Virus record (IMG/VR): IMGVR_UViG_3300029908_000016
Span: 1 to 64,000 of that record
Length of the DNA stretch: 64,000 bases
Source of the DNA: a virus
Direction: 5' to 3' (one strand)
The translations under genes were made by a program, and so were the position numbers. The notes under the pieces were generated by a model. The model saw only the letters and a program-made list of their open reading frames with translations. It did no database searches and was not told where the DNA came from. Positions 5,971-62,113 of this stretch are shown here, in pieces; position 1 is the first letter of the stretch; each line of letters starts with the position of its first letter.

Positions 5971-5981
5971 CTATTAATATC

Positions 5982-6015: not shown

Positions 6016-6043
6016 AGTTAGTATATCTTGATAACATTGGTGT

Positions 6044-25261: not shown

Positions 25262-25301
25262 AACAGGGAGGTTAAATCCTCCCTGTTTTTTAGCTATTGG
25301 A
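25262..25301 (+). terminator. island-end motif, copy 2
   Basis: AACAGGGAGG-TTAAAT-CCTCCCTGTT-TTTTAGCTATTGGA. Confidence 0.85.
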
Positions 25302-26266: not shown

Positions 26267-26860
26267 TTAATTATTGTCTTTTACATGGTGGCAAACACCG
26301 TGTTCATCTGGAGCTTTCCATTTACGTGATTTATTCTTCTCCAGCTTTGATTTACAAGAGGCTAATATGCTTTCAGGTGTTAATCCCATTTTATTGGCAT
26401 AATGTAATAGCAACATGAAACAATCAGCATATTCTTCTGCATCGTTATCGGAATTTTCAAGTTCTATCAATTCTCTACGTAAATGAGTGAGTATGGAATG
26501 TTTATTAGCTTTAGTGAATGTAGCATTAGCCCATTCCATTTGCTCGTTAAAGTAGTTTTCAAATTTCGTAAGTGACTTATTTTCTATTTCTTCCGCAATT
26601 TTAAAACAAAGATTAACGGCCACCTTAGATGCTTGCTCAGCGTTAAATACTTTGTTTCCTGTCCCCTCATGCCAACACATAGAAGCTGAGCCTATAGACT
26701 CAAAAACGGTGTGGTATAAATCACTTGAAATACGATAATTAAGAGGTCTTTCCTTGATTGGAAGATTCATCGCTTCTTCCTTAGATAGTATTGTTTCAGT
26801 AAAGAAGCCCGATCCATCTGGTAAAACATGAATATTGTTGTTACAGGTTGTTGAATTCAT
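26267..26860 (-). CDS. protein with C-terminal DUF550-like dNTP pyrophosphohydrolase domain
   Basis: HLRRELIE...EEYADC..LL...KLEKNKSRKW. Confidence 0.7.
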   Translation of the reverse strand: MNSTTCNNNIHVLPDGSGFFTETILSKEEAMNLPIKERPLNYRISSDLYHTVFESIGSASMCWHEGTGNKVFNAEQASKVAVNLCFKIAEEIENKSLTKFENYFNEQMEWANATFTKANKHSILTHLRRELIELENSDNDAEEYADCFMLLLHYANKMGLTPESILASCKSKLEKNKSRKWKAPDEHGVCHHVKDNN

Positions 26861-30171: not shown

Positions 30172-33100
30172 TTACGAGCATTTTGTCCAACCACATTCTT
30201 TACATTTAACACACCCACTTTCTCGTACAAGCGTACCAGATTCTTCACAAGAAGGACATTCCTCTCCCTTTACCAAAGTTCCATCCTTGATATATTTTTT
30301 TAGATTACGGGCAACGACCTTAGCAAAGCTTTGCATGTCTCCCTTTGTCTTTTCTAATTGATGTACGATAAACGATACGTCAGAGCCATGTCTGAGAGCG
30401 GTGGAAAGTATACGTGTCAATGCGTCTATATCCTCGTGCTTGGCTATATCGTTAAGTTGTACTTCTAATTCGTTAACTACTAAGAAGTATTGCCCTCTAG
30501 CTTTTTTGACTGTTTTCCCTTCTTTAATATCGGAGGGTATAACATCGTTTAAATTTCTACCCGTAAAGACTTCATAAGGCTTGTTGTGCATTAATCCCAC
30601 TACTACGTAAAACTGCTCACCTTTTATTCTAGAATGATAAACATCACAAGATAGCTCTTTTGGTCGTTTAATTACATTAGAGGGTTTAATTTCTTCAGTT
30701 TTGTTTTGGACTAAAACACCCGTTCTACAACCGTCACGATAAACAGTAACACCTTTCAAACCATGCTCCCAAGCGGCTGTATATATTTCGGAAATTTTAG
30801 ACTCCTCTACATCGTTTGGTAAATTTAATGTACTGGAAATGGCATGGTCGATGTTCTGTTGGGCAACTGCTTGTAGTTTTACACGTTTAATCCAGTCGAT
30901 GTCTTCAGCACAATTGCCAAACCAAGGAGATTTTTTCCAATCGGTTTCTCCAGTCACCTCCATCCACAGTTTTAATTTAGGATGGTAGACCTCAAATTCT
31001 TGCCAGCAGTCACCATTCTGATCGATGAAATCTACTTTGCCGTGTTTATCGCTTGGGTTGATTTTCTTGCGACGGGTATAAGGCTTAATTGTGTACACTG
31101 GTTCAATGCCTGAAGATGTTTGTGTAAGTATGCTTACCGACCCAGCAGGTGCGATAGTTAAGTTGGCTATATTCCTACGACCATACTTTGAAATATTATT
31201 GTATAATTCAATGTTTTCTTCTTTGATCTTTAGTAGGAACGCCGAGTTCTTTTCTTTTTCCCAATTCCAAATTGGAAATGCTCCAATCTCCTTCGCCATT
31301 TCCATAGATGATTGAAACGAAGCGAGTTTCATTGCCTTATGAATGTCTCCTACGTGTTTAATTGCTTCTTCACTACTATAAGGAATATTTAAGGCCGCTA
31401 ACGCATCTCCCTCTGCTGTAATGCCCAATCCTGTTCTACGACCTTTCAAGCATTTATCTTTAACTTTAGTCCACACGTATAACTCTTCTGCTTTTACCGT
31501 ATCACTTTCAGGGTCATCTTTAATTTTGTTGATGATTGCTTCGATCTTTTCAAGTTCTAGGTCTACCAAGTCATCCATTAAACGTTGAGCAACCTTGGTA
31601 TATTCTATAAACTTTTCAAAATCAAAACTGGCTTCTTTAGTGAATGGATTGGTTATAAAGCTAAAAAGATTAATTAGCAGTAATCGACAGCTATCGAATT
31701 CACATAACCCAATCTCTGAACAATTACTAATATTAAACCCTTCGCACCAAAAGGTATGTGAGTCGTTATCTACCGTAATATCCCATACTTCTTCTGTTGC
31801 AACAAATTGTTTAGATATAATTTCCTTATTAATAACCTCGGGTTTATCACACAAAACCTTAGATAGATTGTTCATTCTTTCTTGTTTATCTAATTGAATA
31901 AATCCAACCATTTGTGCAAATAACCATTTGTCTCTTGTGATATTCAGGTCATAACTCTGTTTGCATAGATATGTGCCGTTTGTAAACGTAACATTCTTTT
32001 GTTTATTAACAGTATAATAAGACGCAATACCTAAAGAATTAAGCATGAGTTGTACAGTCTGTATTACTTCAAATGAAGCAGCTTTTAAAGTAATTCTCCC
32101 CCCTGCGATACTTCCGTTTGCTGAATAAAGCCCACGTAAAAATCCACATTTCTTACTCCTACTTCCATAAATAAATCTATCAGGAATTATTCTTTTAAAT
32201 GTGAGAGGTATTTCTAAATCCGTAATAGTTGTAGTTATATGCCAAGCGCAATCTTGTATAGTGTAGGCATCCTCATGAATTAAATGACTTATTTCACTTT
32301 GAAAATAGTCTTTATCTTTTTCTCCAATACATAATAGTTTATTTTTAGAAGCTTTATGATATGTACCGTCTCCTATAACTAGTCCGTCCATAATATCTTG
32401 AGGGTCTAATATAATTTCTTTTTCATAAGAAACACCTCGCAGGATATCTATACCTTCGGCGTCTTTGGCTTGTACCTTCTTACCTTTAAATACAAGTTCG
32501 TGATTTTCCGTACAAGTAATGGACCCATGAGTCGTGCTATATTTATAAGTATCTTTAATGCCTGTTTTGAATTTATTTATAACATTCGTCCAACCTTCCG
32601 AAGACCAAATTTTATCCCCTATTTTGATATCTCTTAGTTGTTTTATTCCTTCTTTTGTTAGAAGATGTGTGCTTAAAGGCAGGCAAGGATTCGTAGACAC
32701 TGTTTTGAACCCTTCGTCAGCATAACAATCGACAGCATTATAGTTAGTAATTCTATCCCAGAATAGAATTCCTGGCTCTGCCCGTAACCAAGCGGAGTTA
32801 ATAATCAATTTCCAGATATGAGAAGCTCTTACTTTTTTACTAATTAAAGGAGTTATACCCTTTTCTTTATAGTCTACTGGAAAACATTGTTCGTACTCTT
32901 CATCATTCTTTAAAGCATTTAAAAAGTCGTCGGTTAATCTCACCGATATATTAGCCCCTGTTACTTCCTTATCGTCATTTTTTATAGTTATAAATTGTTC
33001 TATATCAGGATGATGAACAGACAGTGTAAGCATTAAGGCCCCTCGTCTACCATCTTGACAGACTTCACGAATACTATTAGAATACCTACGCATCCAACTT

Positions 33101-33588
33101 ACAATCCCTGTGGAAGTCCTGGCTGCATTGCTGGTTAGTGTACCACTTGGGCGTAAGTTACTTAAATCCGTACCGTTACCCCCTCTTCTCTTACTTATTT
33201 GTACTAGCTGCTGGTCGGTCTTCATGATTCCTCCATAGGAGTCAGTTGGAGATTCCACAACAAAACAATTGCTAAGAGAAACAATTTGATGGTTGTTTCC
33301 AATTCCGTTCATTGGGCTACCTTGAGGCACTAAATATTTAAACTTATCAAAATAACTAAATATTTCTTCTTCTGTGTAAGGAGCTTTAAATTTAGTCTTT
33401 TCTATTCTTGCGAATTCTTTAGCCAGTCTCCAATGCATGTCTGTAGGCGATTGTTCTAATAACTCTTGGTTGTTATTTCTTAAAGCGTACTTATCAATAA
33501 ATACTTTGGCTGCTAATTCATCTCCTTTGAAATACTCAAGAGATTTTTCAAAAGCTTCCTGATAACTAAAAACTGTTGCCATGCACAT
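30172..33588 (-). CDS. nrdJ: class II (B12-dependent) ribonucleotide reductase with intein, C-terminal domain and Zn ribbon
   Basis: LSNCF, RRGA.M, HPDI, NISV, EPG, TNP|C.E, TIAPAGS, SSGIEP, KGVTVYRDG and CPSC...CKEC motifs. Confidence 0.93.
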   Translation of the reverse strand: MCMATVFSYQEAFEKSLEYFKGDELAAKVFIDKYALRNNNQELLEQSPTDMHWRLAKEFARIEKTKFKAPYTEEEIFSYFDKFKYLVPQGSPMNGIGNNHQIVSLSNCFVVESPTDSYGGIMKTDQQLVQISKRRGGNGTDLSNLRPSGTLTSNAARTSTGIVSWMRRYSNSIREVCQDGRRGALMLTLSVHHPDIEQFITIKNDDKEVTGANISVRLTDDFLNALKNDEEYEQCFPVDYKEKGITPLISKKVRASHIWKLIINSAWLRAEPGILFWDRITNYNAVDCYADEGFKTVSTNPCLPLSTHLLTKEGIKQLRDIKIGDKIWSSEGWTNVINKFKTGIKDTYKYSTTHGSITCTENHELVFKGKKVQAKDAEGIDILRGVSYEKEIILDPQDIMDGLVIGDGTYHKASKNKLLCIGEKDKDYFQSEISHLIHEDAYTIQDCAWHITTTITDLEIPLTFKRIIPDRFIYGSRSKKCGFLRGLYSANGSIAGGRITLKAASFEVIQTVQLMLNSLGIASYYTVNKQKNVTFTNGTYLCKQSYDLNITRDKWLFAQMVGFIQLDKQERMNNLSKVLCDKPEVINKEIISKQFVATEEVWDITVDNDSHTFWCEGFNISNCSEIGLCEFDSCRLLLINLFSFITNPFTKEASFDFEKFIEYTKVAQRLMDDLVDLELEKIEAIINKIKDDPESDTVKAEELYVWTKVKDKCLKGRRTGLGITAEGDALAALNIPYSSEEAIKHVGDIHKAMKLASFQSSMEMAKEIGAFPIWNWEKEKNSAFLLKIKEENIELYNNISKYGRRNIANLTIAPAGSVSILTQTSSGIEPVYTIKPYTRRKKINPSDKHGKVDFIDQNGDCWQEFEVYHPKLKLWMEVTGETDWKKSPWFGNCAEDIDWIKRVKLQAVAQQNIDHAISSTLNLPNDVEESKISEIYTAAWEHGLKGVTVYRDGCRTGVLVQNKTEEIKPSNVIKRPKELSCDVYHSRIKGEQFYVVVGLMHNKPYEVFTGRNLNDVIPSDIKEGKTVKKARGQYFLVVNELEVQLNDIAKHEDIDALTRILSTALRHGSDVSFIVHQLEKTKGDMQSFAKVVARNLKKYIKDGTLVKGEECPSCEESGTLVRESGCVKCKECGWTKCS
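31723..32685 (-). mobile_element. 321-aa intein with LAGLIDADG endonuclease in the nrdJ NPC motif
   Basis: STNP|CLPLSTHL...TENHEL...VWDITV...HTF...ISN|CSEIGL; GLVIGDG and FLRGLYSANG motifs. Confidence 0.92.
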
Positions 33589-45457: not shown

Positions 45458-46801
45458 ATGTTTGTAAATTACGATGAGTTTAAAAAATACTCAAAAGGTT
45501 CTGGAAGGAAAGTTGAAATAACTTGTGAAAAGTGTAAAAAAACAAGACTTAAAACAGTTGCAGAATTATATAAATTTAATAGACATTTGCCAGACTCCAC
45601 ACATGGCTGCGTGCACTGTAAAAAAGATGTCGCAGAAAGAAATAATTTATTAAAATATGGTGTAAAGAATACATCGCAATTACCTGAAGTTAGAGCAAAA
45701 CATAGAGCATCTTGTTTAAAAAACTTAGGTGTAGAATTCCCTATGCAAAATAAGGACGTACAATCTAAGAATAAAAAAACAAATTTAATACGTTATGGAG
45801 TAGAATGCTCTCTTCAAAATCCTGAAATTAGAAAGAAAAGTTTAACTACATTATTTAATAATTATGGGGTAGATAGCGCAAATAAAAATGAAAGTATAAA
45901 ACTAAAGGGTATAAAAACTAAATTAAGAATATATGGAACATTACATCCTAGGATTAATAAAGAGGAGAATAAATTAAAGGATTTTTTAAATTCTTTTGGG
46001 TTTAATTTTATTTCTGATTATGACTTATTAAGTGGTAAAGAAATAGATGCTTACGACATTAATCTAAAATTGGGGATAGAGTATTGTGGGCTTTATTATC
46101 ATAATGAGCTATCTCCCAACCCGAGAGATAAAGATTATCACAATAATAAAAGATTAAAATGTGAAGCCCAGGGAGTTAGACTAATTACTATATTTGAAGA
46201 TGAATGGAGACGTAGAAACAGCCAAGTTAAAGGTTATTTAAAGGCAATTTTAAATAAAACAAATTTTAAGATATACGCTCGAAAATGTTTAGTTAAGGAT
46301 ATAGATAAAAAAGAAGCTAACGCCTTTATCAATAAATACCATATACAAGGAGCAAACCTTTTAGGTATTTATTTTGCAGGATTGTATTATAAAGAAGAAT
46401 TAGTTGGAGTTATGAGTTTTGGAAAACATCCTAGAAACTTTCGAAAATTAACTTTAGATCGTTTATGTTTTAGAGAAGATTATTCAATAATAGGAGGGGC
46501 TTCTAAGATGTTTGTCTATTTAACCAAAAAATTTGATATACACGAGATTATTAGTTGGTCGGATAATCGATGGTCGCAAGGTAATGTGTATAACGCTTTA
46601 GGATTTAACTTAGACGAAGAATTACCTCCAGATTATAGCTACGTATATATTAAAAATCCTGTAGAACGTTTATCTAAACATTCTCAAATGAAAAGAAATA
46701 CTAAGTGTCCTATTGATAAAACAGAACTAGAGTGGGCAACTGAAAGAGGGTTAGCAAGAATTTGGGACTGTGGTAAAAAAAGATGGATATGGAAATCGTA
46801 A
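45458..46801 (+). CDS. Hef-like free-standing homing endonuclease
   Basis: Zn finger, (K/R)YGV repeats, EID.Y...GIEY.G.YYH nuclease motif, IYARKC...IWDCG C-terminal domain. Confidence 0.8.
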   Translation: MFVNYDEFKKYSKGSGRKVEITCEKCKKTRLKTVAELYKFNRHLPDSTHGCVHCKKDVAERNNLLKYGVKNTSQLPEVRAKHRASCLKNLGVEFPMQNKDVQSKNKKTNLIRYGVECSLQNPEIRKKSLTTLFNNYGVDSANKNESIKLKGIKTKLRIYGTLHPRINKEENKLKDFLNSFGFNFISDYDLLSGKEIDAYDINLKLGIEYCGLYYHNELSPNPRDKDYHNNKRLKCEAQGVRLITIFEDEWRRRNSQVKGYLKAILNKTNFKIYARKCLVKDIDKKEANAFINKYHIQGANLLGIYFAGLYYKEELVGVMSFGKHPRNFRKLTLDRLCFREDYSIIGGASKMFVYLTKKFDIHEIISWSDNRWSQGNVYNALGFNLDEELPPDYSYVYIKNPVERLSKHSQMKRNTKCPIDKTELEWATERGLARIWDCGKKRWIWKS

Positions 46802-47485: not shown

Positions 47486-50400
47486 TTAATTATTGATTAA
47501 ACTGTCTACGTATTCTTTTACAGCAGGGTGAGATAATAGTTTTTTTGTACGCTCATCTTCTGCTTGAATTGTATTTTCTTGTTTCGTCGCTACGGATACA
47601 GGTTTCTTGTTTAATTGATTATCAATGATCGCACCTGTCACTAATGAAGACAAGTTATGTTTAGCAGTTTTGGACTGCCCAAAATATTGAGGAATGATTG
47701 GTTGTCTTGGAATATAACCATTATTCATCGGGTAGCTTCCCATTGCTCCCTGAGAAGGTTGAGAAGTAGGATTATCGGTTTGGCTGTTCAATAACCCATA
47801 CGCGATGGGTAACATCAAATACGGAGCAGCTTCACCCATCAATCCTTTAACCATATTCTCACCACCTGTTAATGTATTATTAATGGTTGTGGATAAACCG
47901 TTAGGTTGCATCAATGGTTTTACGTTGTTGTAAATATTTTCGGCAGAAGACACACCTGGTATCTGTTTGAGATAATCGTTAAACCCAGAAAGCTTATTCA
48001 TTAAATTGCTTCAATATTAACATTCAATGGACTATTTGAAGAACGATGTTCTTCTTTACCTATATTACTTTTTAAAATAATAGAGGCTAATGTTGTTGCT
48101 AATAATGGTTTATCAACAAAATCTTCTCTTACTTTCTGAGAAGATGGAAAATGCTTGGTTACAGGATGTGCCAAATTCTTTAAGCTTCTACTCAGTGCAC
48201 CATCAGAAATTGTTTCTTCAGCAGATTTCTCAATAGCCTTTAACATACCTATACACATTGCATCAACATGAGGAACATCCATTTCATCCAATGAAGCTTT
48301 CTTTTCTCTGGTTAACGCTTTCAAATAATCTTCATGAGCTTTTTCCAATTCTTTATGAAGATTGTTTTTCTTATAGCTATAATGTTCAGTTTCTTTTTCT
48401 TTGAAGCCTTTATAGATATGACCAATGTTATTCAAATGTTCTGTTAAGGAAGCTTTCTTGGCTTGCTGTAAGCGTTCTTTTGGAAGTTTGATTACAAATT
48501 TTTCTTCCTCTTCTTCTTTACGAGGTTCATTCAATATGTTCTTTAATTGAATACCACCATACAATCCCTTTCCTAACAAATAAGAATGTATACGTTTTTC
48601 TTCAGGTGAAAGGGGTCGTTCGGTCATAAAATTAATCTTCTGGTATTATCAAGGCAGGTTTTTCGGAATCAAGATCTTCAAGATAATGACTAACAATTAC
48701 ATACTTGCTGGTCACATTACTAAAATGGCTTTCCCATTTCGTTACATAATAACGAGGACTATTGATTAGTTCTTCGTAAAGCTTCTTTTCTTCAGGAATC
48801 GTAATATCAAATATTTGGACGTGGTTCTTGAAATTGGAAAATTTTTTCTTTTTTTGTTTGATACCCTTTTCTTCTTCAAAAGCATCAGCAATTTCTTCGT
48901 TTGATCTTCCTCCAAAACCAACCTTCTCAAATATTTCTTTTTCAAAGTCACGGTCATTCCGACGTTTGACTTTCAAATCGGACAGTTCACCAGCGTCATA
49001 AGCATCAACTACAAAAGATTCAGTATTAGGATTCATGTTCTTGATTAATTTTATTTGTTAATTTCTTTAACAAATTAATCTTGTCCTGATAAGTTTTCAA
49101 CTTTTTATTTTTTTCTGATATATCTTTGTCTAGATGTTCATAACCTGTAGCCATCCCATAACCACCCAAAGCAAGTGTACCCGCATACGCGCCTCCTGCC
49201 TTTGCACCAATGTCCAGAGGATTGAGCTTATCAAGGAAAGCGAGCTTCAATAAACTAGCTGCTTTTGTAACACCTGCTTCTGTGTGCATCGCCTGCAAAG
49301 CGTTTTCAAGCTCTTCCAATGAAGAACCTTGTTTTTCGAGATTTTCCGCAAAATTGGCTTTAAGTAGATTTAGAGGGTCCATGATTATTTAATAAACTAT
49401 TACTTATGATAACCCCAGCACCAAAGCCAGCCAAGGATAAAAGAATTTGTGTCTCTTTTTTAAATTGCAGAAATCTTGAAATTGCCAAGGCTGTCAAAGC
49501 ACCAGTTGAGCCTATAAATAAATTTTCTAAGGGATGTGGATTATCAATTATGGATAATATATGATTACGAGCATGATCGTCAACATGAGGATCGAGAGCA
49601 ACCAAAGTCGATAAATGTTGTCGATTGGTTGCTTCATTTAATATCTGTAAAGTATTATTCATATTAAACAGGACTAAAAGAAGCACTCGCTGCAGGTGTT
49701 AAAGCACCTTTTCCACCATAATACAAAGCCATGATTGTTGCTAACGGAATACCATAATCCATCAATTTTGAAACTAACGGATGTTGCACATCAAATGGGT
49801 CATTGTCCTTACGATTTTTATTTAACAGATAACTAGCTCCCATTGCACCCCCTGCAACAACCGGAGCAGGTAGATTTGTAAAATTATTAAAGGTATTTAC
49901 AGCCCCAGAGTATATATTAGCTGTTTTATTGATATCCACTTGTTCAGCTATTAAATCTTTAATCTGCTTATTGATTTTCTTTTTTAAAATGGCTTTCCAA
50001 ACATTCTCATTTTGATGCTTTAAAGTATAAGTAGGATTACGTTTACCTTCGTGCAGCGTAATATACAACTGACCAGGATGACTACGATGTACTTGCGCAG
50101 TACGTTCATGTGTAGCGATATTTGAATAATTATTATCGTTTAATCTTTTGATTTCGAAAGAATGATTGTCTTCTTCTTTGTCGGGTACCAATTTATCAGG
50201 GAATGAAAAACTATAAATTGTCTCTCCATTCTTTAAAGATAGTTTACCATCCTTATGCTTATATTTCCAATTTTGCTGATTATTGGAGAATGGAAAATGG
50301 GATGTTACTTCATGACTGGGTGGAAAGTCGAGGACTTCAGCCAATTTATAAAGTAATATCGCTTTTCCAAAATTCATGATTATTAAGGATAGGAATGTTC

Positions 50401-51693
50401 ACCCGATAAAGCAGCTATTGAATCAGGTGTGATTGTACCTGACTGTGGATAACCTGCTCCATATCCCGGATTTAACATTCCTCCAAAATTACCTTCGTTA
50501 TTTTTAATATTTGATAACAATGAAGGAAGATACTTATCACCACCATAAGCCCCTAATAATGTGGTAGCTAATCCAGGTAAACCAGATAGACCATAATGTT
50601 TCGCTAACAACATCGCTCCCAATCCACCTGCCAATGTTCCTGTCCAACCATTGTCCAATCCAGGAATTAAATCATTTTGTTTTGATATAGGATCTGCAGG
50701 ATTAGTATTCGTACCACTGATGTTATCTTTAATCCCCTGTTCCACCCCACCGGTAATACCTGAATAATCCAATAACTTTTTACCCCCATATAATGCACCT
50801 GCCCCAATAGCTCCTGCTGTACCAAGTTGTCGAGCACCGTATCGAGCTAATAAAGCTGCTGGAGCAGCAGCGGCTGTACCAATTGGTCCAAACATTGCAC
50901 CAGTTCCAAGTATTGAAGCAGGTGCCATATTACGTTCAATGAATCCTCGATTACCTTCTCGGTTCGTACCGTTCCATAACAAATCAGTTAATGAGTTATC
51001 TAACGGAGCTTTACCAATTAGTTTATTAAATAATGTTGGATCGGATGGTTGTGGAGTGGACTCTGGTGTTGATGTATTTACAGGATTGGATTTTCCTTTA
51101 TTGGAATAAGCTTCTTCTGCTGCATTTCGAGCATCAATACCTACAGGTGCTTGTAATCCTGGTTCTTTGTTTTGTGGGGCATAAGAGGTATTATCAATAT
51201 CTGTGGATGCTGCGTTAGATTGTGCCCTTGCTCTTGCTCGGTCATAAGTTGGATTTACCGATGTAGGTTGTTTCACAACCTTTGCTGGGTTTACGATTGG
51301 GTCAGGGCGTAAATATTTTCCAAATGATCGTTCAATTTGTGTCATTCTTGGCAATGCTTGTTCAATCGCAGGTAAAGCTGCATCACCCAATTCTCCAAGA
51401 CCTGCTGCGTTTTTAAATAACTTTTCTGCTGTATCGAATACACCTTGAATATATTCTTTTGAATAGCCGGATTGTATAGCAGCTATCTTAAATTGTTTCT
51501 GAAAATGCATTGAAGCTTTTTTTAGCTCTTCAATTGGATTTTCAATTTCTCCAATCTCATAAGATATCTTTGTAAACAATGCATTATCAGATAGTTGGCT
51601 ATCAATATACTCTTCTGCCTTTTTTTGAATGGAGGATAGAGAATGTAATAAAGGATAAATAAAGGGAGGAAGAGTTTCCATATACTTAATCAA
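47486..51693 (-). other. operon of seven putative internal virion proteins (47486..48001, 48001..48627, 48632..49036, 49026..49382, 49360..49686, 49664..50377, 50383..51693)
   Basis: Tightly coupled ORFs, several with glycine-zipper segments and recurring K-x-(A/S/G) motifs; co-oriented with beta-N. Confidence 0.6.
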
Positions 51694-52828: not shown

Positions 52829-53263
52829 ATGGGTACAAATTATTATAGCATTGTAAAGGAATCAGAAGAATGTCCTCACTGTAATCACAGTACTCCTCGA
52901 ACGGAAAAACATATTGGAAAATCCTCTTTTGGATGGTGTTTTCAATTACATGTTTATCCCGAAGAATCCATCAATAGTCTGAATGATTGGCTACCATATT
53001 TTGACAAATACATCATTGAAGATGAGTATGGAAAAACAGTTTCCAAAGAAGATATTCTGAGAATTATTACCGAACCTAAACGGTCGAATAATCGAAATAA
53101 TTCTTCATCACAAATAGGATCATCATTAATTCGAAGCCAATTTCTAGACCACTATCAGGCTGTCGAAGGGCCATATAATCTATTGAGATCAAGAATCGAT
53201 AATACTCATTGTATTGGGCATGGAGAAGGTACTTACGATTATATCGTAGGAGAATTTAGTTAA
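52829..53263 (+). CDS. conserved phage protein (MGTNYY...HIGKSS.GW.F family)
   Basis: Motif recognition. Confidence 0.7.
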   Translation: MGTNYYSIVKESEECPHCNHSTPRTEKHIGKSSFGWCFQLHVYPEESINSLNDWLPYFDKYIIEDEYGKTVSKEDILRIITEPKRSNNRNNSSSQIGSSLIRSQFLDHYQAVEGPYNLLRSRIDNTHCIGHGEGTYDYIVGEFS

Positions 53264-53273
53264 CCCCTCCCCA

Positions 53274-53309
53274 CCCCCCTTGGAGGATTAGGCTACAAAT
53301 TGGTATACT
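53274..53309 (+). promoter_or_regulatory. island-start promoter motif, copy 5
   Basis: CCCCCCT ... TTGGTATACT, TATACT at 53304-53309. Confidence 0.8.
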
Positions 53310-53341
53310 AGTATATCAGGAAAGGATTTATCTCTTGTGAG

Positions 53342-53764
53342 GTGAATTCTGGAAAACAAAAACAACGAAAGGATCATATGATTAATATCGACGAACTCAC
53401 ATTAAAAGATATCAAAGCAATTCAACAAATTGTTGTTCCAACGATTGGAACACCTAACCATAATACTAATCCAGATCAACCGTATCACCCAATGTTGGGT
53501 AAACGTTGTTTGGTACGTACTTACAGTGCAGGTGTACACATTGGGGATATCTCTTATGTGAACGGTATGGAAGTGAAATTGACAAATGCACTGCGCCTGT
53601 GGAAATGGGAAGGCGGCGGTTTGTCGTTGTCGGCAATTGCCAATGTTGGAATGAAAGGTGGACGTATCGACGTAACCAATGAAGTATACCTCACCAATGT
53701 AATCGAAATTATCCCCACAACCAAGGAAGCAGAAAAAACCTATGTCAAATTCATTGAAAAATAA
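53342..53764 (+). CDS. DUF6948-like protein
   Basis: LVRTYSAGVH.G...LTNALRLW.W.G..SLS.IA...IEIIP.T; start probably at the later ATG. Confidence 0.75.
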   Translation: MNSGKQKQRKDHMINIDELTLKDIKAIQQIVVPTIGTPNHNTNPDQPYHPMLGKRCLVRTYSAGVHIGDISYVNGMEVKLTNALRLWKWEGGGLSLSAIANVGMKGGRIDVTNEVYLTNVIEIIPTTKEAEKTYVKFIEK

Positions 53765-54065
53765 ACATCATGGCCACGATTTACATCATGGCCACGATTT
53801 AAAAGATGGCTCTGATGGCTCTGATGGCTCTGGCTCTGGCGATGGCTCTGGCTCTGGCTCTGGCGATGGCTCTGGCTCTGGCTATGGCTATGGCGAGGGC
53901 GAGGGCTCTGGCTATGGCTCTGGCTATGGCGATGGCTATGGCTATGGCGATGGCTATGGCTATGGCTCTGGCTATGGCTCTGGCTATGGCTCTGGCTCTG
54001 GCGATGGCTATGGCTATGGCTATGGCGATGGCTATGGCGATGGCGATGGCTCTGGCGGAGGTTAA
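53742..54065 (+). CDS. Gly-X repeat protein (GS/GD/GY)
   Basis: Hexamer microsatellite (TCT/GAT/TAT)GGC at 53805-54057, preceded by an 18-bp duplication at 53765-53800. Confidence 0.65.
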   Translation: MSNSLKNKHHGHDLHHGHDLKDGSDGSDGSGSGDGSGSGSGDGSGSGYGYGEGEGSGYGSGYGDGYGYGDGYGYGSGYGSGYGSGSGDGYGYGYGDGYGDGDGSGGG

Positions 54066-54069
54066 TGGC

Positions 54070-54109
54070 AAAATGAGGTTCCACCCCTCATTTTTTAGCT
54101 ATCAGACAG
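54070..54109 (+). terminator. island-end motif, copy 3
   Basis: AAAATGAGG-TTCCACC-CCTCATTTT-TTAGCTATCAGACAG. Confidence 0.85.
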
Positions 54110-55054
54110 CGGATTACGAAAATAACCCAAAGCATCCTTTCTCCGTTTATTATATAATAATTGGAGTATCTCCATATCGTTTCTGACCCTTCGATATAAC
54201 ATCGATGAACGCTCGGGTGTCCAGTGTACCCTGTACTGGTCTTTCAGAGTACCTGTCATCGGTTTACATAAATACCGTAAACAATTATCAAAATAACTCT
54301 TCGTCAATATCGGCTTACTTAAATTGTCCATACCCAAATCGTCAAAGTAGGATAAATCGAGCACAGACCCTTTTGGACAGGCGATTATACAATGAAGGTG
54401 TGAGGACCAGGTATTGTGCAGAAGATTCAAGCAGGAGGCTTCCTCGCTCCAAAGAGCACCCAGTAGATAACGATAACGAGTACGGGAATGTAGAAGATTA
54501 CTCAGTTTTACATGAATACGACGATTCTTGGAATGAAAATTCAATAATAAAGAATCAATATTCTGTAAATCAAAAACATGAAAATCGGATGGCTCACCAA
54601 ATGTTATATGATAAAAGTCCAATCCACTAGTCCAGTAACCAGAATATTTTCTCCAAAAAGATTGTTCAGCCCGAAAAGCACAACGAGGACAGTAACGAGA
54701 TTTACCACATGGACGATTAGGAGTAGTGTATCGATCAGGATATAAAGGATTAGTTCTCATCTCACAGCAAATACAACAGTCCCAAGTATAAGAATCCAGT
54801 AGATTAAAAGCTTGGTCTTCCAGTTTACCCACTTGATACCTTTTGGAATATCCTTTGTCCAATTGGATTAGATTACCGTTAACAATAGAATCAAGTATGC
54901 GATCATGGATTACAGGATCACGTTCGGACAGAAGATTCCAGCTATCACGTAGAGACTGGAAGTTTAGAAAGTTGAGATTTTCATACCCCCTAATATGTTC
55001 CGACGACGTATGTAGCTGTAAAGGCACTACAGGAGGTACAGTAAGAGAGGACAT
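54095..55054 (-). CDS. rolling-circle replication initiator-like HUH endonuclease
   Basis: Zn site C..C / CG...CPRC, motif I HITF, motif II HLHCII, motif III YLCK. Confidence 0.7.
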   Translation of the reverse strand: MSSLTVPPVVPLQLHTSSEHIRGYENLNFLNFQSLRDSWNLLSERDPVIHDRILDSIVNGNLIQLDKGYSKRYQVGKLEDQAFNLLDSYTWDCCICCEMRTNPLYPDRYTTPNRPCGKSRYCPRCAFRAEQSFWRKYSGYWTSGLDFYHITFGEPSDFHVFDLQNIDSLLLNFHSKNRRIHVKLSNLLHSRTRYRYLLGALWSEEASCLNLLHNTWSSHLHCIIACPKGSVLDLSYFDDLGMDNLSKPILTKSYFDNCLRYLCKPMTGTLKDQYRVHWTPERSSMLYRRVRNDMEILQLLYNKRRKDALGYFRNPLSDS

Positions 55055-55838
55055 ACGAAGTCGAGCAATATAATGGGGAAACGGCTGTTAAGCAAGATAG
55101 AGGTATAGAAAGAGTAAGAATAGCTATTCGACAGAGAGGTAAGCTGGAACTATTCGATTAACCAAGTAAACGGCAGGCCTGCGAAAAGTAGAGAATGGAA
55201 AATAAAGTTTAGCTTAGAAAGAGCTATAAAATAGGGGCTGAGACTAATCATTGGCCAACTAATCTAGTACTACATATATAAGGTATATAATATTCTATAA
55301 AGACAGGTATACCGAATTGCTTGAAAAACATTCGTTAGATATAGTTTTATTGAGTTTATTTAATGTAAATAAGGCAGTTGACAACATATGTATTCAGATT
55401 TACGTTAATGTAAAAACACTAATTCAGTGGATGGTTAATACAAGTTAAGTATATACATAAAATTTGACTGTGGTGCCTTTATACGTATATTCAACAATGC
55501 ATAAATCTTATATCGTACTTCCAGATATCGTAGAATTGACTAGGGATAATTTAGCAGAGTTTTATAAAACATTTGTCAAAGTTACACGTATCCCATTATT
55601 TAAATCGTCAATAACAGATCACCTAATAACTGTACAATTTTCGGATAAACATATTTTGGATATGTTGAGCTTTTGTCCTATTGAGGACATTTCAAAAGTA
55701 GACCCACTTAGGCAAGAATTTCAAAAATGTAATCCTACAGTATTTGGTGTACCTGTTTCTGTGGAGGGTAATTATACAGCTATTATTTTCCAATATGGCA
55801 TTTGACAGCTATAAATATAAGGTTAGATTGTAGAACTT

Positions 55839-56903
55839 ATGAAATTTGCTTTTAAAGAACAGCGGTCGATTGTTGAAAAGTCTATAGAACGAGTATTCGC
55901 ATTATTGTCAAACAATCCTTATAGTAAACCTACACTTTATCTATCTGGCCCAATGTCTGGTAAGCCTGACCATAACTTTCCAGAGTTTAATCGGTTGGCT
56001 AAACATTTCCGTGAGCAAGGGTTTTTCGTATTAAACCCAGCCGAGAATTTTGATGGTGTAACCAATCTTCCTTACGAAACACATTTTCTGGAAGATGTTG
56101 TATTGTTATTGTTTGCTACTCACATTTATATGCTGGATGGTTGGGAGACATCAAGAGGAGCTTATTGTGAATATCTGTTATCTCGTAGATTAAATCATAT
56201 ATTTGTTGATGTTAATGGATTACGCATTGACCCACCACCAGCTAGGGAAACCGCAAAGGATATTGCTACAACAGGATTTATTAATGTTTTAGAACCAAGT
56301 ACCGACAAGTTGACTAAGGATATAGCTGATGCAGTCAATAAACGTTTACGGGAATACGCCTTTCAAGAAAAGAAAAATGAACATGTTGAGAATACAATAA
56401 CAACAGCTAATAAACAGTTTTTTAAGAATTGTAGTATTGAAGATTATGAAGTTTTCAATGCTAGGTTAAATAATCGGGTCAAAGAGTTATTGGTTGAAAA
56501 CGAAAAGCTAAAAAAGGAAAGAGATGAATTTAAGAAGGCATTAGATGTAGCATTATTGGAAAATGTAGGTAATGCTTTATTGGAGATATCTGCTGTTTCT
56601 AAAGAGGAAGAGAAATCATTAGCTCAACAATCAATAGATATTGTTAATAAAGCTCGCTCTGCTCAATATGGTAATCCTAAAGATGATTTCTTAAGAACGG
56701 TAGGAATGTTAAATTCATTAGGTTATCGTTTTGAGACACCTACAGGAGAGATTAAGAACTTAGATTGTTATGATTTTCCAATAATTATGAACGTTGTAAA
56801 ATTATCTAGATTGGTTCATACCATTAATAAAGAAACATTTCATAAGGATTCGGTATTAGATATTCATGGTTATATGAATACATTAGAAATGTTGTATAAG
56901 TAG
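55839..56903 (-). other. placeholder check: no minus-strand gene called here
   Basis: See the + strand CDS at the same coordinates; the ORF track lists no minus-strand ORF in this interval. Confidence 0.05.
55839..56903 (+). CDS. DUF4406 (nucleoside deoxyribosyltransferase-like) + coiled coil + DUF6378-like fusion
   Basis: YLSGPMSG.P.HNFPEF...LNPAE...LDGWETSRGA..E; R.AQYGNP.DDF...KLSR...DS.LDI.GY; upstream TTGACA-17-TAGATT. Confidence 0.8.
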   Translation: MKFAFKEQRSIVEKSIERVFALLSNNPYSKPTLYLSGPMSGKPDHNFPEFNRLAKHFREQGFFVLNPAENFDGVTNLPYETHFLEDVVLLLFATHIYMLDGWETSRGAYCEYLLSRRLNHIFVDVNGLRIDPPPARETAKDIATTGFINVLEPSTDKLTKDIADAVNKRLREYAFQEKKNEHVENTITTANKQFFKNCSIEDYEVFNARLNNRVKELLVENEKLKKERDEFKKALDVALLENVGNALLEISAVSKEEEKSLAQQSIDIVNKARSAQYGNPKDDFLRTVGMLNSLGYRFETPTGEIKNLDCYDFPIIMNVVKLSRLVHTINKETFHKDSVLDIHGYMNTLEMLYK

Positions 56904-56943
56904 TAAATAACCTTGATTTCTACCCTTATGGTTAAGTTATAAT

Positions 56944-57252
56944 TTGAGCATGGCCAAATTGGACTTAACCAAGCTAAAGAAAATCAAGTCACATACTTTT
57001 GCAGGTAAAAAGTATAAGGTAAAAGTCAAATACCTTCCACCTGACCGGATGGCTCAATGTGATCATCCGGAAACAAAAGAAAAAGCCATTATTATCGATC
57101 CCCGACATCACGAAGAAAGGGATTTACTAAAATCCCTTTTGGATGAATCTCTACATTGTTTTGATTTTCGAATTGAAAATGATGTTGTCGATAAATTTGC
57201 TTTGGATATAGCAAATTTTTTAATTAGAGCAGGATTTGGATTAAAGAATTAA
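56944..57252 (+). CDS. small zincin-like hypothetical protein
   Basis: CD.P....I.ID...LLDESLH (degenerate HExxH). Confidence 0.45.
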   Translation: MSMAKLDLTKLKKIKSHTFAGKKYKVKVKYLPPDRMAQCDHPETKEKAIIIDPRHHEERDLLKSLLDESLHCFDFRIENDVVDKFALDIANFLIRAGFGLKN

Positions 57253-57504
57253 GCTTCTTCAAAAAACCGATTAACAGATTCAAGTTTTGAGTTTTCCAGA
57301 GATTCAAGCATTTCCATAATCTTATAATCTTCGGTATTGGATTTTTTACAAAGTTCAACAAACGATTGAATGAGTTCTTCGTCAGCAAATTTATAAAGAC
57401 TACCGTTTGCTTTTTTCGTTAAATCCATAAATGAATGATAACATTGTTTTTTGTAAACACAACACAGACTTGTGGACATTGCTAAAATACGCTAACTTTA
57501 AATA

Positions 57505-60471
57505 ATGTCCGATACTCATAAAGTTGTTCTCGATCATGGCAAGTTGGCAAAATCTCCAATTGATAAAAAATCCGATTATAGTTTTTTATCCCCTTCTTCG
57601 TTTTTCTCACCAACTACCAATTTGATTCCTCAGTTGTCAGGTATATCCGGTGGTCGTGTATTATTGGGGGACAAAGCTAGCCTACAGGCAATATCGTTAG
57701 TGCACCGTGAAGCCCCTTTAGTCAAATCACGTAATGAAGAAACTGACGAATCATTTGTAAAAGAATATGCCAAACCAATGGCAGCTGTTTTTTCGAAAGT
57801 TAAGGGAAAGGTAAACAGTATAAAAGATAACATAATTATGGTTGGTGACACTCCACACCATATTTACGACAATTTCCTGACGGGACATAAAAGCTTCATT
57901 CATCATGAGCCGATTGTAAAAGTTGGAGATGAGGTTAAAGAAGGTGATTTATTAGCCAAAAGTAACTTTACAGATTCCCACGGTAATTTGGCGTTGGGAG
58001 TCAATTTAACAACTGCTGTCATGCCTTATCGTTCTTCGAATTACGAAGATGCGTATGTTATTACCGAGGCAGGTGCTAAGAAACTGGCAGGTGAGCAAAT
58101 GATTCCCCTGACGGTTGAAAAGGAAAGAGGGCTGGATTTCAATAAGAATAAATATATTTCGTTGTTCCCCAATAAATACGTCAATTCTCAACTTGAAAAT
58201 GTTGATTCTGATGGTGTGATTAAAAAGGGTACAACGGTAAAGAACGGTGACCCGTTGCTTTTGAGCTTCGAACCCAGAACATTGAGAACGACCGATGCGC
58301 AGCTTGGTAATATTTCAGGTATATTAAAGAACGCATTTTCTGATCGTTCACAAAAATGGGAATATGATTCTCCGGGTGAAGTAATGGATGTGGCAAAGAC
58401 TAATAAATTGGTCACGATTACTATAAAAACGAGAAGACCGATATCAGTGGCAGACAAGCTATCCGTAAGTGCTGGTGCAAAAGGTGTGGTTGGCGCGATA
58501 CTATCGGATAGTCAATCCCCAGTAACGAAAGATGGAAAACCAGTAGATATTATCTTGAATTCCATGTCCGTTGTTTCGCGGGTAGCTCCAGGGTTGTTAA
58601 CATCGATAGCTTTAGGTAAAGTTGCTCAAAAAACTGGTAGAGCACTATCTATTAATGGCTTTGATGAAAAGTCGAATATTGATAATGCACAAAAGATATT
58701 AAAAGAAAACGGCTTGCATGAAATGGAGGATATTTATGATCCACTATCAAACAAGCATTTGAACGTAATGGTGGGACCAATGTACGTTACTCGCCTACAT
58801 CATATATCGGAAGATAAAGCCTCAAGTAGAGGGCAGGGAGGCAGTTACGATATCAATATGCAACCTGCAAAAGTATCAGGAGGTGATAAGAGTAAACGAC
58901 TAGGTAATCTAGGTACGAATATTTTAATATCTAGAAACATGCGTCATGTTCTCGAAGACGCAGGAACAATACGGGGAACAAAAAATGATGAATATTGGCG
59001 TAAATTGAAATTAGGTGAAGATTTACCAAATCCAGAAGTTCCATTTATTTTCAATAAATTTATTTCTCATCTTGAAGGAGCAGGTATAAAAGTACAACGG
59101 GATGGTACTCGGTTTAATGTACTACCTCAAACAAATAAGGATGTTGAAAATTTATCAAAAGCAGAGATTGAAAATGCTAATATATATAAATTAAAAGCTG
59201 GTGAATTGATACCTGAGGAGGGAGGTTTATTTGATGTTAATAAAGTAGGTATTGGAGGAGATAACTATACACATATTAATTTGAAGTACCCGGTTATTAA
59301 TCCAATTACTGAGGATTATATTCGTAAGACCTTAAATATCACAAAAGATAAATTTAATGATCTGGTAGGCAAAGGACAATTGATCGATTTATTAAAGTCA
59401 ATCAACTTAGATAGTAAAATCAAAGAATTAGAAAAAGATATTAAATCGGCTAGAAAATCAGACAGGGATAATAAACTAAAGGTCTTGGCTTTTCTTAAAA
59501 ATCTAAAGAACAATAACATTGATCTTAAAGATTTGATCATCAATAAAATACCGGTAATACCTGCAAAATTTCGTCCACTGGTTGTACAAGGAGGAAGAGT
59601 AATATCATCTGGTGTTAATGAGTTATACAGAGATTTAATGTTAGTGAATCAAAGCACTGACGGATTGCCAGAAGATATAGCTGAAGGAGTCAGGCGCAAA
59701 CAATACGATGGAGTAAAAGCTGTTTATGGATTAGGTAGCCCAATTTCTACAAGAAATGAAAAAAAGAATTTTAAAGGATTATTGGCATCTGCTTTAGGCT
59801 TACAAGGAGGCTCAGCTAAAGGTAGTATGTTCCAATCAAAGGTTGTCAATAAACCTTTGGATCTAACTGGTAGGGCAGTCTTAACTACGGATTCAAATTT
59901 GGATATTGATGAAGTATCTTTACCTCATGAAGCTGTTTGGAAAAGTTATAGCCCTTTTGTAATTCGTCGATTAGTACAATCAGGGTTACCCGCTGTACAT
60001 GCAAAAGAATATGTTGAAAATAAACATCCTATTGCAAGGGAGCATTTATTGGATGAATTAAAGGATCGACCGATTAATGTTATTCGTGATCCTCAAATTG
60101 CCTTACATTCAAGTCAGGGGTTTTTTGTTAAGATGAATTCCGATCCAAAAGATACGTCGATTAAGTTGAATCCCCTTCTTAGTAAAGGATTCGCATACGA
60201 TCTTGATGGAGATGCGTTAACATACTTCGTACCTTCTAGTGAGAAAGCCAAGGATGAAATTAAGAACAAAATGCTACCATCCAAAAATCTACTTTTTCCT
60301 AGAAATTTTGGGCCTGCCTATATACCTTCCAATGAATCCGCTTTAGGTTTATATCAGGCTTCTACACTGAATAATAAGAATAATCCCAGAAAATTTAATA
60401 ACGTAGACGAAGTGAGGAAGGCTTATGAAAAAGGAGAGTTGCATCTAGGCGATAATGTATTATTGTCTTAG
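57505..60471 (+). CDS. RNA polymerase beta C-terminal / beta' N-terminal fusion with catalytic site
   Basis: beta: NLIP, LALGVN, NYEDA, DKL..GAKGVV, PVDIILN, RLHH..DK; beta': GGLFD, IPVIP..FRP, KPLDLTGRAV, AYDLDGD at 60193-60213. Confidence 0.93.
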   Translation: MSDTHKVVLDHGKLAKSPIDKKSDYSFLSPSSFFSPTTNLIPQLSGISGGRVLLGDKASLQAISLVHREAPLVKSRNEETDESFVKEYAKPMAAVFSKVKGKVNSIKDNIIMVGDTPHHIYDNFLTGHKSFIHHEPIVKVGDEVKEGDLLAKSNFTDSHGNLALGVNLTTAVMPYRSSNYEDAYVITEAGAKKLAGEQMIPLTVEKERGLDFNKNKYISLFPNKYVNSQLENVDSDGVIKKGTTVKNGDPLLLSFEPRTLRTTDAQLGNISGILKNAFSDRSQKWEYDSPGEVMDVAKTNKLVTITIKTRRPISVADKLSVSAGAKGVVGAILSDSQSPVTKDGKPVDIILNSMSVVSRVAPGLLTSIALGKVAQKTGRALSINGFDEKSNIDNAQKILKENGLHEMEDIYDPLSNKHLNVMVGPMYVTRLHHISEDKASSRGQGGSYDINMQPAKVSGGDKSKRLGNLGTNILISRNMRHVLEDAGTIRGTKNDEYWRKLKLGEDLPNPEVPFIFNKFISHLEGAGIKVQRDGTRFNVLPQTNKDVENLSKAEIENANIYKLKAGELIPEEGGLFDVNKVGIGGDNYTHINLKYPVINPITEDYIRKTLNITKDKFNDLVGKGQLIDLLKSINLDSKIKELEKDIKSARKSDRDNKLKVLAFLKNLKNNNIDLKDLIINKIPVIPAKFRPLVVQGGRVISSGVNELYRDLMLVNQSTDGLPEDIAEGVRRKQYDGVKAVYGLGSPISTRNEKKNFKGLLASALGLQGGSAKGSMFQSKVVNKPLDLTGRAVLTTDSNLDIDEVSLPHEAVWKSYSPFVIRRLVQSGLPAVHAKEYVENKHPIAREHLLDELKDRPINVIRDPQIALHSSQGFFVKMNSDPKDTSIKLNPLLSKGFAYDLDGDALTYFVPSSEKAKDEIKNKMLPSKNLLFPRNFGPAYIPSNESALGLYQASTLNNKNNPRKFNNVDEVRKAYEKGELHLGDNVLLS

Positions 60472-62113
60472 TTATATGATTAGAAACGATTTAACAAAAG
60501 AAAAATATGGTTATGTTTTTTCTGATCTAGGTAAATATTCAAGAAATTTTTTAATTTTCCAATGCGACTCTTGTGGGGAAATTATCGAAAAAATTCGAAA
60601 AAATTTTAGAAAGTGGTTTACACTTGAAGATAAGGCTTTCTGTACTAAATGTATGGCAGCGGCCAGAGAGTATGGAATAGCTAAAAAATATACTTCTTAC
60701 GAAGAATACTTAAATACAAGACATCAAAATTTAAAAAAGAATAATTTAGCTAAATATGGAGTAGAAAATGTTTCCCAGTTATCGGAAATTAAGGAAAAAA
60801 AGGTAAATACTTTTTTAAAAAATTATAATCATACCTCCTATATACAATCCGAAGAAGGCAAAAAACATAGAGAAGCAAGACTTTTGGAAGTTTACGGGGT
60901 TAAAAATTGCTCTCAAAGTGATGTGATAAAAGACAAAAAAGAAAAAACTTTTCTAAATAGATACAACGTTAAAAATATTTTTCAAGATGAGGCGATCAAA
61001 CAAAATATACAAAAATATTTTTTAGATAATTATAATGTCGTAAATCCTAGTCAAATACCTGAAGTACAGAATAAAAAAGAAATATCCTGTTTAAAGAGTA
61101 CGGGTTATAAACATAATTTCATAAATCCTGTTATAAGAGAAAAGTCTAGAAAAGGTTGTCTGGCTACAGGTCGTTGGAAATTTCCTGAAGAAGGTTATGT
61201 TAAGAAAATTGCCGAGGAAAAAGGTATAAGTACTGAGACTTTTTATAGTTTTGTCAGAAGATTCGGTGTCGAGCAATTCGAGGAAAGTTTTCGACTGCGA
61301 ATGACAAAAATCGAATTTGTCGTTAAGCAATTTTTAGAGAGTCTCAAGATGCCTTATATATTTAATAAGAGAATAACTACAGATTGCAACCCTAACAAAA
61401 ATAAGAAATTTAGTAGACCTGATTTTATCGTACCTAGTAACAGGGTAATTATAGAATGTGATGGTTTATTTTGGCATTGTGATAAATTTAGAGATAAAGA
61501 TTATCATGTTGATCGCAGAAAATATTTTGTTGATAATAATTATTTTCCGTTATTCTTTAGAGAACATGAAATTTTACATCATCAAAAAATTGTCGAATCC
61601 ATCATTAAAAATAGATTAAATTTAATTACAAATAGAATATTTGCCCGAAAGACTACTTTAAAGGTAGTTGAATTCGAAGAAGCAAAATTGTTTTTTACAA
61701 ATAATCATTTGATGGGTAAGGGGTTGGGTGAAACATTGGGCCTTTATTCTAACGACCGCCTAGTGTTAGCCATGCAATATAGATGGAAAAATAAACAAGA
61801 TAGGTTGCTAGAGATATCGAGGCTTTGCCCTCTGATAGACCATTCGATTATAGGCGGATATTCCAAATTATTAAAATTTCTGATAAAGTTAGAACACCCC
61901 AAACAAGTTGTTAATTTTATAGATAAAAGATATGGTGATGGTAATTACTTATCGCAATTCGGGTTTGTAAAGGAGTCAGAGTTCATCAGTTTTCAATGGA
62001 CTGATTTTATACATACTTTTCATCGTATGAAGTATCCTTCTAATTCCGGTTATGATAACGGGTTGTATAAGATTTGGGATTGTGGTCAAGCCAAATATGT
62101 ACTAACGTTGTAA
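60455..62113 (+). CDS. Hef-like free-standing homing endonuclease
   Basis: Zn finger, KYGV/YNV repeats, RPDF...IECDGLFWH, IFARKT...IWDCGQ motifs. Confidence 0.8.
   Translation: MYYCLSYMIRNDLTKEKYGYVFSDLGKYSRNFLIFQCDSCGEIIEKIRKNFRKWFTLEDKAFCTKCMAAAREYGIAKKYTSYEEYLNTRHQNLKKNNLAKYGVENVSQLSEIKEKKVNTFLKNYNHTSYIQSEEGKKHREARLLEVYGVKNCSQSDVIKDKKEKTFLNRYNVKNIFQDEAIKQNIQKYFLDNYNVVNPSQIPEVQNKKEISCLKSTGYKHNFINPVIREKSRKGCLATGRWKFPEEGYVKKIAEEKGISTETFYSFVRRFGVEQFEESFRLRMTKIEFVVKQFLESLKMPYIFNKRITTDCNPNKNKKFSRPDFIVPSNRVIIECDGLFWHCDKFRDKDYHVDRRKYFVDNNYFPLFFREHEILHHQKIVESIIKNRLNLITNRIFARKTTLKVVEFEEAKLFFTNNHLMGKGLGETLGLYSNDRLVLAMQYRWKNKQDRLLEISRLCPLIDHSIIGGYSKLLKFLIKLEHPKQVVNFIDKRYGDGNYLSQFGFVKESEFISFQWTDFIHTFHRMKYPSNSGYDNGLYKIWDCGQAKYVLTL

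Follow-up and report, generated by a model that had tools for sequence, protein, structure and literature searches.

The gene described here lies within the window, by which we mean the whole 64,000-nucleotide (nt) stretch that was analysed, comprising bases 1–64000 of the 81,005-bp IMG/VR virus record IMGVR_UViG_3300029908_000016 (CheckV completeness 40%). It encodes a protein resembling the rolling-circle replication initiators (Rep proteins) of the HUH class, and the locus consists of the gene and the region upstream of it:

54095–55054, minus strand: gene for a Rep_1-like HUH (one-tyrosine) nickase or rolling-circle initiator of 319 amino acids (aa), assigned from its open reading frame (ORF), homologues, hhalign comparison and fold matches.
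55055–55463, no strand assigned: divergent intergenic region of 409 nt with 32% G+C and a fold z-score of +0.16.

Judged from its sequence, this gene of a large peat phage is real and intact and encodes a previously nameless Rep_1-like HUH nickase. It is the sole minus-strand ORF of at least 100 aa from 52 kb to the end of the record at 81 kb, and the only reversed gene of that size within a 29-kb plus-strand block. The initial annotation had described a gene that opposes its neighbours and follows roughly 400 bp of gene-free DNA, and indeed 55055–55463 contains no ORF of at least 60 aa. The gene occurs once in the 81 kb, and its G+C content is 39.1% compared to 35.7% for the genome. A 3375-nt contig of run X1 spans 54063–57402 without a difference and joins the gene to its neighbours. 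We found no joint skipping the gene in the contigs of four runs; in this check, run X3 had near-zero cover on the gene and the RNA run X23 had no contig there, so that neither informs on its absence or expression. The sole joint listed in these contigs, from 52904 to 53734 in one RNA contig, lies outside the gene.

A HMMER search of 1.84 billion representatives returned 8 proteins at E ≤ 0.001, including the window protein itself (P0001), and word-indexed searches added three more, so the family is rare. The closer homologues are 60%, 40%, 65% and 32% identical to the window protein and the distant ones 20–25%; the 60% identical protein, P0002, which is encoded on a 2.4-kb contig, also shares its C-terminus (...SDS). 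In the resulting 11-row family alignment, the following elements are conserved, where each count is taken over the rows that cover the residue in question:

54680–54769, minus strand: cysteine cluster C96 ... C116-x5-C122-x2-C125, a putative zinc ribbon, invariant in 11/11 rows.
54596–54616, minus strand: motif I, FYHITFG, residues 147–153, with T151 in 10/10 rows; aligns with FLTLT of Rep_1.
54434–54460, minus strand: G199 ... E204-E205 strand, with G199 and E205 in 10/10 rows; aligns with the G-x-x-R-x-x-E-v-T strand of Rep_1.
54383–54403, minus strand: motif II, SHLHCII, residues 218–224 (H219-L-H221), with both histidines in 9/9 rows; aligns with the H-x-H of Rep_1.
54260–54280, minus strand: motif III, LRYLCKP, residues 259–265 (Y261-L-C-K264), with the candidate catalytic tyrosine Y261 in 9/9 rows.

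A lysine three residues past the motif III tyrosine is present in all seven displayed rows that reach this position, and the motifs stay intact in relatives down to ~20% identity. The alignment thus agrees with the initial reading of zinc-type cysteines followed by motifs I, II (HLH) and III (YLCK) in Rep order, in which the cysteines would be expected to bind metal. Every catalytic hallmark of a one-tyrosine HUH Rep is conserved, and on this evidence the enzyme is probably catalytically intact. A tblastn search with the Rep protein against 50,697 phage records gave no match, and searches of phages (by tblastn), IMG/VR, JGI metagenomes and GTDB genomes yielded no relative with its context. The lone IMG/VR candidate (L004), located in G+C-rich DNA opposite a genuine gene of 630 aa, was rejected as spurious.

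PMC5714925 defines the HUH Rep class by the succession I-II-III of its motifs, of which motif II is His-hydrophobic-His and motif III carries the Tyr, and describes Rep_1 as the HUH initiators of rolling-circle plasmids. The window protein follows this order, with FYHITFG, H219-L-H221 and then Y261. Its resemblance is closest to Rep_1 (PF01446; RepA of pC194, RepU of pUB110), with which it shares the order and spacing of its elements (the cysteine cluster, then motif I, the G...E strand, H-x-H and Y-x-x-K), as well as the single tyrosine, a similar size, the absence of a helicase domain and a predicted fold that is alike (template modelling (TM) score 0.54–0.55). At matching positions in Pfam scans, P0004 shows sub-threshold similarity to Rep_1 (E 0.0041, 17.0 bits) and P0012 to REP_ORF2-G2P (E 0.017); P0004 is the best member for Rep_1 and falls short of the gathering threshold of 33.2 bits, and a six-frame scan of the whole record gave no Rep_1 match.

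We built a Rep_1 mini-profile from six proteins, those of pUB110, pC194, Clostridium phage CAK1, an inovirus, bajarodino virus 57 and Listeria phage LIS04, and aligned the family to it with hhalign, which returned 86.2% probability and an E-value of 4.9e-6 over 117 columns. This alignment runs from the cysteine cluster to the HUH motif with the motifs in register, covers motif I and the G...E strand, and ends before motif III. The cysteine cluster of the window family aligns with the DC...C-x4-C-P-x-C of the pUB110, pC194, inovirus and LIS04 Reps. With pUB110 Rep alone the E-value was 0.0073 in the same register, and with ϕX174 protein A it was 0.71.

We also compared predicted structures. An AlphaFold2 model made from the 11-row alignment (mean predicted local distance difference test (pLDDT) score 76.7, predicted TM score (pTM) 0.76) places motif I on a strand at 145–153 and HLH on a strand at 215–227, with Y261 as the last residue of a helix at 252–261 and K264 following it. 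The model therefore predicts the catalytic tyrosine of the YxxK/H motif on an α-helix and HUH on a β-strand, as in the Rep class. A search of BFVD gave 14 matches at E ≤ 0.001, the best at 3.2e-7; most rows are nameless, and within the first 50 the rows bearing a name are those of three microvirus replication initiators, an 'Inovirus Gp2' and an ORF2/G2P-domain protein. In the ESM Atlas, which was searched with its own model so that both sides are predicted, residues 47/66–318 (209–224 residues) matched four clusters that are 97–100% Rep_1 with the TM score given above, and a feature search scored 0.96 to Rep_1-bearing clusters. Against 48,161 solved chains, VIA-align listed HUH domains among its top rows, namely Vientovirus Rep (Z 7.7, root-mean-square deviation 3.5, 105 aligned), SIRV1 ORF119 (7.6) and Helitron (7.2), and lower down circovirus Rep and MVM NS1 (both Z 6.6) and RepB and nanovirus M-Rep (both Z 6.5), all in a range, Z under 8, that the tool cautions is common. 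The profile and structure comparison with Rep_1 that the initial annotation called for thus finds the likeness (hhalign E 4.9e-6, Atlas TM 0.54–0.55, BFVD 3.2e-7), and its call of an HUH Rep-like gene is upheld by motif conservation in 11 members, by Rep_1 profile homology and by the fold comparisons. Taking the hhalign, ESM Atlas and BFVD results together, we are highly confident that the window protein belongs to a divergent sister family of Rep_1, one without an existing name.

The Helitron row bears on a further possibility, that the protein is a rolling-circle transposase of the IS91/ISCR or Helitron type, and one of the Rep_1 clusters in the Atlas does carry Zn_Tnp_IS91 in 10% of its members. 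However, the family has one conserved tyrosine rather than two and no Pfam match to Y2_Tnp, and the gene is a single copy in 81 kb encoding a 319-aa protein without a helicase domain. We consider this reading scarcely credible.

Compared to Rep_1 the protein has ~95 additional N-terminal residues with a conserved motif of their own, its score lies under the Pfam threshold, no CTTGATA-type origin is found upstream, and it is encoded by a large tailed phage rather than a 3–5 kb plasmid. The initiators of single-stranded DNA phages (inovirus ORF2/G2P, PF23343; CAK1 Rep; microvirus) provide the best BFVD matches and the weak REP_ORF2-G2P match of P0012, and the CAK1, inovirus and bajarodino Reps contribute to the mini-profile that the family matches. 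Their genes adjoin their own origins in single-stranded DNA genomes of 4–8 kb, whereas the window gene lies in a large double-stranded DNA phage and no origin was found adjacent to it. A Rep_1-type gene in a setting more like this one is found in LIS04 (Thornevirus), a tailed phage with a genome of 181.6 kb, in which the gene annotated 'protein Rep' (L009, 3908–4660) is a bona fide Rep_1 (133.7 bits), is flanked by a dCMP deaminase gene and hypothetical genes, and likewise has no other small-replicon genes nearby. However, LIS04 Rep is co-oriented with its neighbours and is a clear Rep_1, and the window-family profile misses it at E ≤ 1; on this comparison the two proteins are not close. The protein A of P2 and ϕX174 (Phage_GPA, PF05840) are likewise HUH initiators, and P2, a double-stranded DNA tailed phage, replicates by rolling circle via its A protein. 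These proteins show no detectable sequence relation to the window protein (E 0.71 for ϕX174 protein A, as above), and they have two tyrosines and an origin within the gene.

The initial annotation proposed that the gene is flanked by copies of a TAGCTAT-containing 14-mer and, as one of three readings, that it encodes a domesticated HUH nickase, which would mobilise cassettes via hairpin-TAGCTAT island ends, the two 14-mers being the ends of its own cassette. The relevant features are:

54070–54102, plus strand: hairpin, T-run and TAGCTAT tail between convergent genes, overlapping the Rep stop codon (−11.6 kcal/mol, z −3.0).
5982–6011, plus strand: second hairpin, T-run and TAGCTAT element, with TAGCTAT at 6005 (−5.9 kcal/mol).
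25262–25297, plus strand: third hairpin, T-run and TAGCTAT element, with TAGCTAT at 25291 (−20.4 kcal/mol).
54096–54109, plus strand: first 14-mer, which on the minus strand encodes L-S-D-S-stop of the Rep gene.
55121–55134, plus strand: second 14-mer, located 67 nt upstream of the Rep start, non-coding and without a hairpin (−2.1 kcal/mol, z −0.18).

Exactly three elements in the 81 kb combine a hairpin with GAGG..CCTC stem ends, 6–7 T and TAGCTAT, and the recurrence of this core that the initial annotation noted is confirmed at 6005 and 25291. All three are on the plus strand and each closes a plus-strand gene run. Their hairpin and T-run anatomy and this placement lead us to read them as what they look like, intrinsic terminators. 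The copy at 54096 sits past the stop of the convergent Gly/Tyr-repeat gene, directly after the terminator hairpin, and TAGCTAT at the Rep 3' end looks like part of an intrinsic terminator shared with that gene rather than a recombination or nick site. The convergent gene, a 107-aa ORF (53742–54065, plus strand), consists nearly entirely of Gly/Ser/Tyr/Asp repeats, and its DNA is a tandem array with a period of 6/12/18 nt and 55% G+C. It varies in the contigs of other runs, where 9 nt are inserted at 53804 and 18 nt are deleted at 53765.

The 14-mers do have the coordinates and the 12/14 identity reported for them. Furthermore, a pattern made from both gave 3 matches at ≤1 mismatch against 0.25 expected, a count reached by 0/100 shuffles (the pattern was chosen post hoc), TAGCTAT occurs 20 times against 10.1 expected (1/100 shuffles reached 20), and the sequence past TAGCTAT is loosely common to all four sites. 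The bracketing is not confirmed as exceeding chance: 22/96 genes of the genome have a direct repeat of at least 12/14 between windows at both ends, and the pair is outside the 20 largest of the 44 direct-repeat families in 53000–56500. The 55121 copy looks like a chance match. Outside this record, a motif scan of IMG/VR found one hairpin, T-run and TAGCTAT element in one other record (L011, 74 kb, 36% complete), at 3001–3027; it shares 82% identity with the 6005 copy across 56 nt, and L011 has no Rep match and no protein or other similarity in its flanks.

HUH enzymes of IS200/IS605 and REP-associated transposases act at hairpins, and a weak fold row to 4er8 (E 0.31), together with the motif counts above, could be taken to favour the cassette model. 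However, TnpA and the REP-associated transposases are proteins of ~150 aa that act on flanking hairpins, whereas the window protein is twice that size, carries the cysteine cluster and is Rep_1-like rather than TnpA- or RAYT-like. The hairpins have the anatomy and placement of terminators, one 14-mer lacks a hairpin and the other is Rep coding sequence, equal flanking repeats are common among the genes, and the gene is single-copy with no contig joint that skips it. The bracketing-repeat and cassette story is thus not supported, and we judge a nickase mobilising cassettes at island-end hairpins to be very improbable.

What the enzyme might do for the phage can be framed by analogy with the Reps of pC194 and pUB110 and the initiators of inoviruses and microviruses, on which we base the proposed chemistry. 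Rep would bind at a specific site, where Y261 would cut one DNA strand with the aid of a divalent metal that H219 and H221 hold. Rep would then remain joined by a covalent bond to the 5' end through a 5'-phosphotyrosine, and the freed 3'-OH would prime a polymerase for strand-displacement synthesis of the rolling-circle or sigma type. The metal binding, nicking, covalent adduct and replication role are all inferred, the chemistry from the family. Our best explanation as a whole, that an intact divergent Rep_1-like nickase starts phage replication or switches it to a concatemer-forming mode, strikes us as evenly balanced between right and wrong. The narrower proposal, that its role is to start the phage's own rolling-circle or sigma replication, is one that we hold tentatively and with somewhat less than even confidence; we prefer it to its rivals because the catalytic residues are kept down to ~20% identity and because the 181.6-kb LIS04 carries a Rep_1 gene.

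Several observations weigh against the assignment or against this role. The window protein has no Pfam match even at E ≤ 10 and none in PHROG, NCBIfam or PDB sequences, and no member reaches a curated family threshold, all 11 having been scanned against Pfam. Foldseek against the PDB gave no match at E ≤ 0.001, with HUH proteins such as 4er8 among the weak rows, and the HUH rows of VIA-align are middling in Z and interleaved with generic ferredoxin-like folds. The gene stands alone and reversed amid unrelated small genes with no replication module there, and neither a DNA polymerase nor a helicase partner was seen in the 81 kb. The region 55055–55463 has no iterons, stable hairpin or CTTGATA core, and contains only two exact direct repeats of 9–10 nt. 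Finally, among the closest cultured relatives by RNA polymerase, which are only ~30% identical and comprise Salmonella phage Arash and Vibrio phages of ~187 kb, neither Arash nor Vibrio phage D69 matched Rep_1 or the family profile. This silence is weak, because the family profile also misses the true Rep_1 of LIS04.

The missing origin can be set against the small replicons, in which a CTTGATA core lies 140–250 nt upstream of rep (pC194, pUB110, the inovirus and bajarodino virus 57). In the window genome CTTGATA occurs 24 times against 17.1 expected, and the Rep family may use a nick sequence other than CTTGATA. GC skew tracks gene orientation, with no separate inflection at the gene. We considered 5966–6037, an intergenic stretch around the first terminator, as a candidate origin, where a 13-nt minus-strand run ending at 5984 equals the ϕX174 origin core and a second CTTGATA lies 43 nt off on the opposite strand. 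This candidate was rejected and the 13-nt likeness treated as chance, as 27% of 300 order-2 Markov genomes match at least 13 contiguous nt of one of five reference origins.

A captured gene is the main rival. In this account the gene is an accessory or selfish passenger, a moron-like single-gene insert whose source was a small replicon of the rolling-circle type (plasmid, inovirus or microvirus-like), and the protein would play no part in phage genome replication or would replicate or mobilise only some small element. The gene is a lone reversed one of at least 100 aa in a 29-kb plus-strand block with its own upstream region and terminator, its G+C is slightly above that of the genome, its closest fold and sequence relatives are initiators of single-stranded DNA phages and plasmids, no origin is found adjacent, and the weak silence on Arash and D69 points the same way. 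In contrast, both this protein and all of its relatives keep the catalytic residues intact, the gene has no integrase genes, above-chance repeats or other small-replicon genes near it, a Rep-less form was not seen in the contigs of the four runs, and the contig of at least one distant relative measures 24 kb, which exceeds typical small rolling-circle replicons. On balance we regard a passenger as unlikely, though a serious contender. The suggestion of the initial annotation that the gene is a replication initiator or a captured plasmid gene survives as the two leading readings, with the cassette-mobilising part of it set aside.

A different kind of role is suggested by three of the distant relatives. 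P0007, P0010 and P0012 (753, 853 and 880 aa) continue past the Rep domain for 430–540 extra C-terminal residues, which comprise a basic linker, a predicted hydrophobic (transmembrane) Gly/Ala-rich segment and a long low-complexity tail, with a Pro/Thr-rich stretch in one of them. Such tails hint at a membrane link, and together with the lack of a cognate origin adjoining the gene they could indicate a nickase with a non-replicative target, one that cuts host, plasmid or competitor DNA or remains covalently attached to a DNA end, acting as a pilot protein or membrane anchor. However, the window protein is tail-less and nothing tail-like is encoded in the 81 kb; because the tails have no Pfam family or Atlas match, the idea of an anchor draws on composition alone. 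We also looked at the Gly-rich 436-aa ORF at 50383–51693 as a split-off Rep tail and rejected it, as it is unrelated to the C-terminal tails of the three proteins. We give little credence to a non-replicative target. Also improbable is a broader proposal in which these proteins form a clade of Rep_1-like nickases of large tailed phages, some with a membrane-anchored Gly-rich tail, that would start sigma replication at a site other than CTTGATA or would tether a genome end covalently to the membrane.

Encoded in the 81-kb record are pieces of a multisubunit RNA polymerase, a ribonucleotide reductase that contains a probable LAGLIDADG intein, ThyX, PhoH, a dCTP-deaminase-like protein and an SNF2 helicase, together with tRNAs, and from this gene content the source of IMGVR_UViG_3300029908_000016 is a large tailed phage. 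Near-identical sequence is present in contigs from 23 peat-metagenome runs, with at least half of the sampled words found in 8/23. An Rfam scan of the window identified three tRNAs only:

864–948: tRNA gene.
17644–17715: tRNA gene.
17767–17838: tRNA gene.

Several further features of the genome stand apart from the Rep question. G+C reaches 48–55% across 13000–16000, inside a 1537-aa ORF (11707–16320) without a Pfam match. The RNA-polymerase β and β' domains are fused in one 988-aa ORF (57505–60471, plus strand; Rpb2_6 plus Rpb1_1/2), and the portion with β' domain 5 is a separate ORF 3.4 kb downstream (record 63867–65720). Between these parts lie a gene for a DUF7487 and Vsr-like endonuclease protein (60455–62113) and two ORFs without assignment, and the polymerase gene looks to be split by a homing-endonuclease-type insert. 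In the large subunit of the ribonucleotide reductase (30172–33588, minus strand), the LAGLIDADG domain lies within the barrel domain and is probably an intein. DUF7487 is also joined to a Mom-like domain in one protein (45458–46801, plus strand). Alongside are nucleotide genes, dATP/dGTP pyrophosphohydrolase-like (26267–26860), GMP-reductase/IMPDH-like (25294–26253), ThyX and dCTP-deaminase-like, and the Mom-like protein together with these nucleotide-metabolism genes hints at modified DNA bases. The IMPDH/GMP-reductase-like ORF has the same length as the Rep protein, 319 aa, which we take as coincidence.

To our knowledge, how DNA replication starts and how concatemers form is unknown for most very large phages. 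Within the set of papers searched, our full-text literature search found nothing relevant on HUH or rolling-circle initiators in jumbo phages or on Rep_1 in Caudoviricetes, and one GenBank phage, LIS04, has an annotated Rep_1 gene. The family described here fills an annotation gap, as it is recognised by no Pfam, PHROG or NCBIfam model, and the gene offers a concrete, testable protein whose catalytic residues can be named as H219, H221 and Y261. Should the gene be no more than a captured passenger, it would be an ordinary case of a phage genome receiving a gene from a small rolling-circle replicon. If it is the initiator, this large phage would start its replication from a nick, a way of priming that is otherwise typical of tiny replicons.

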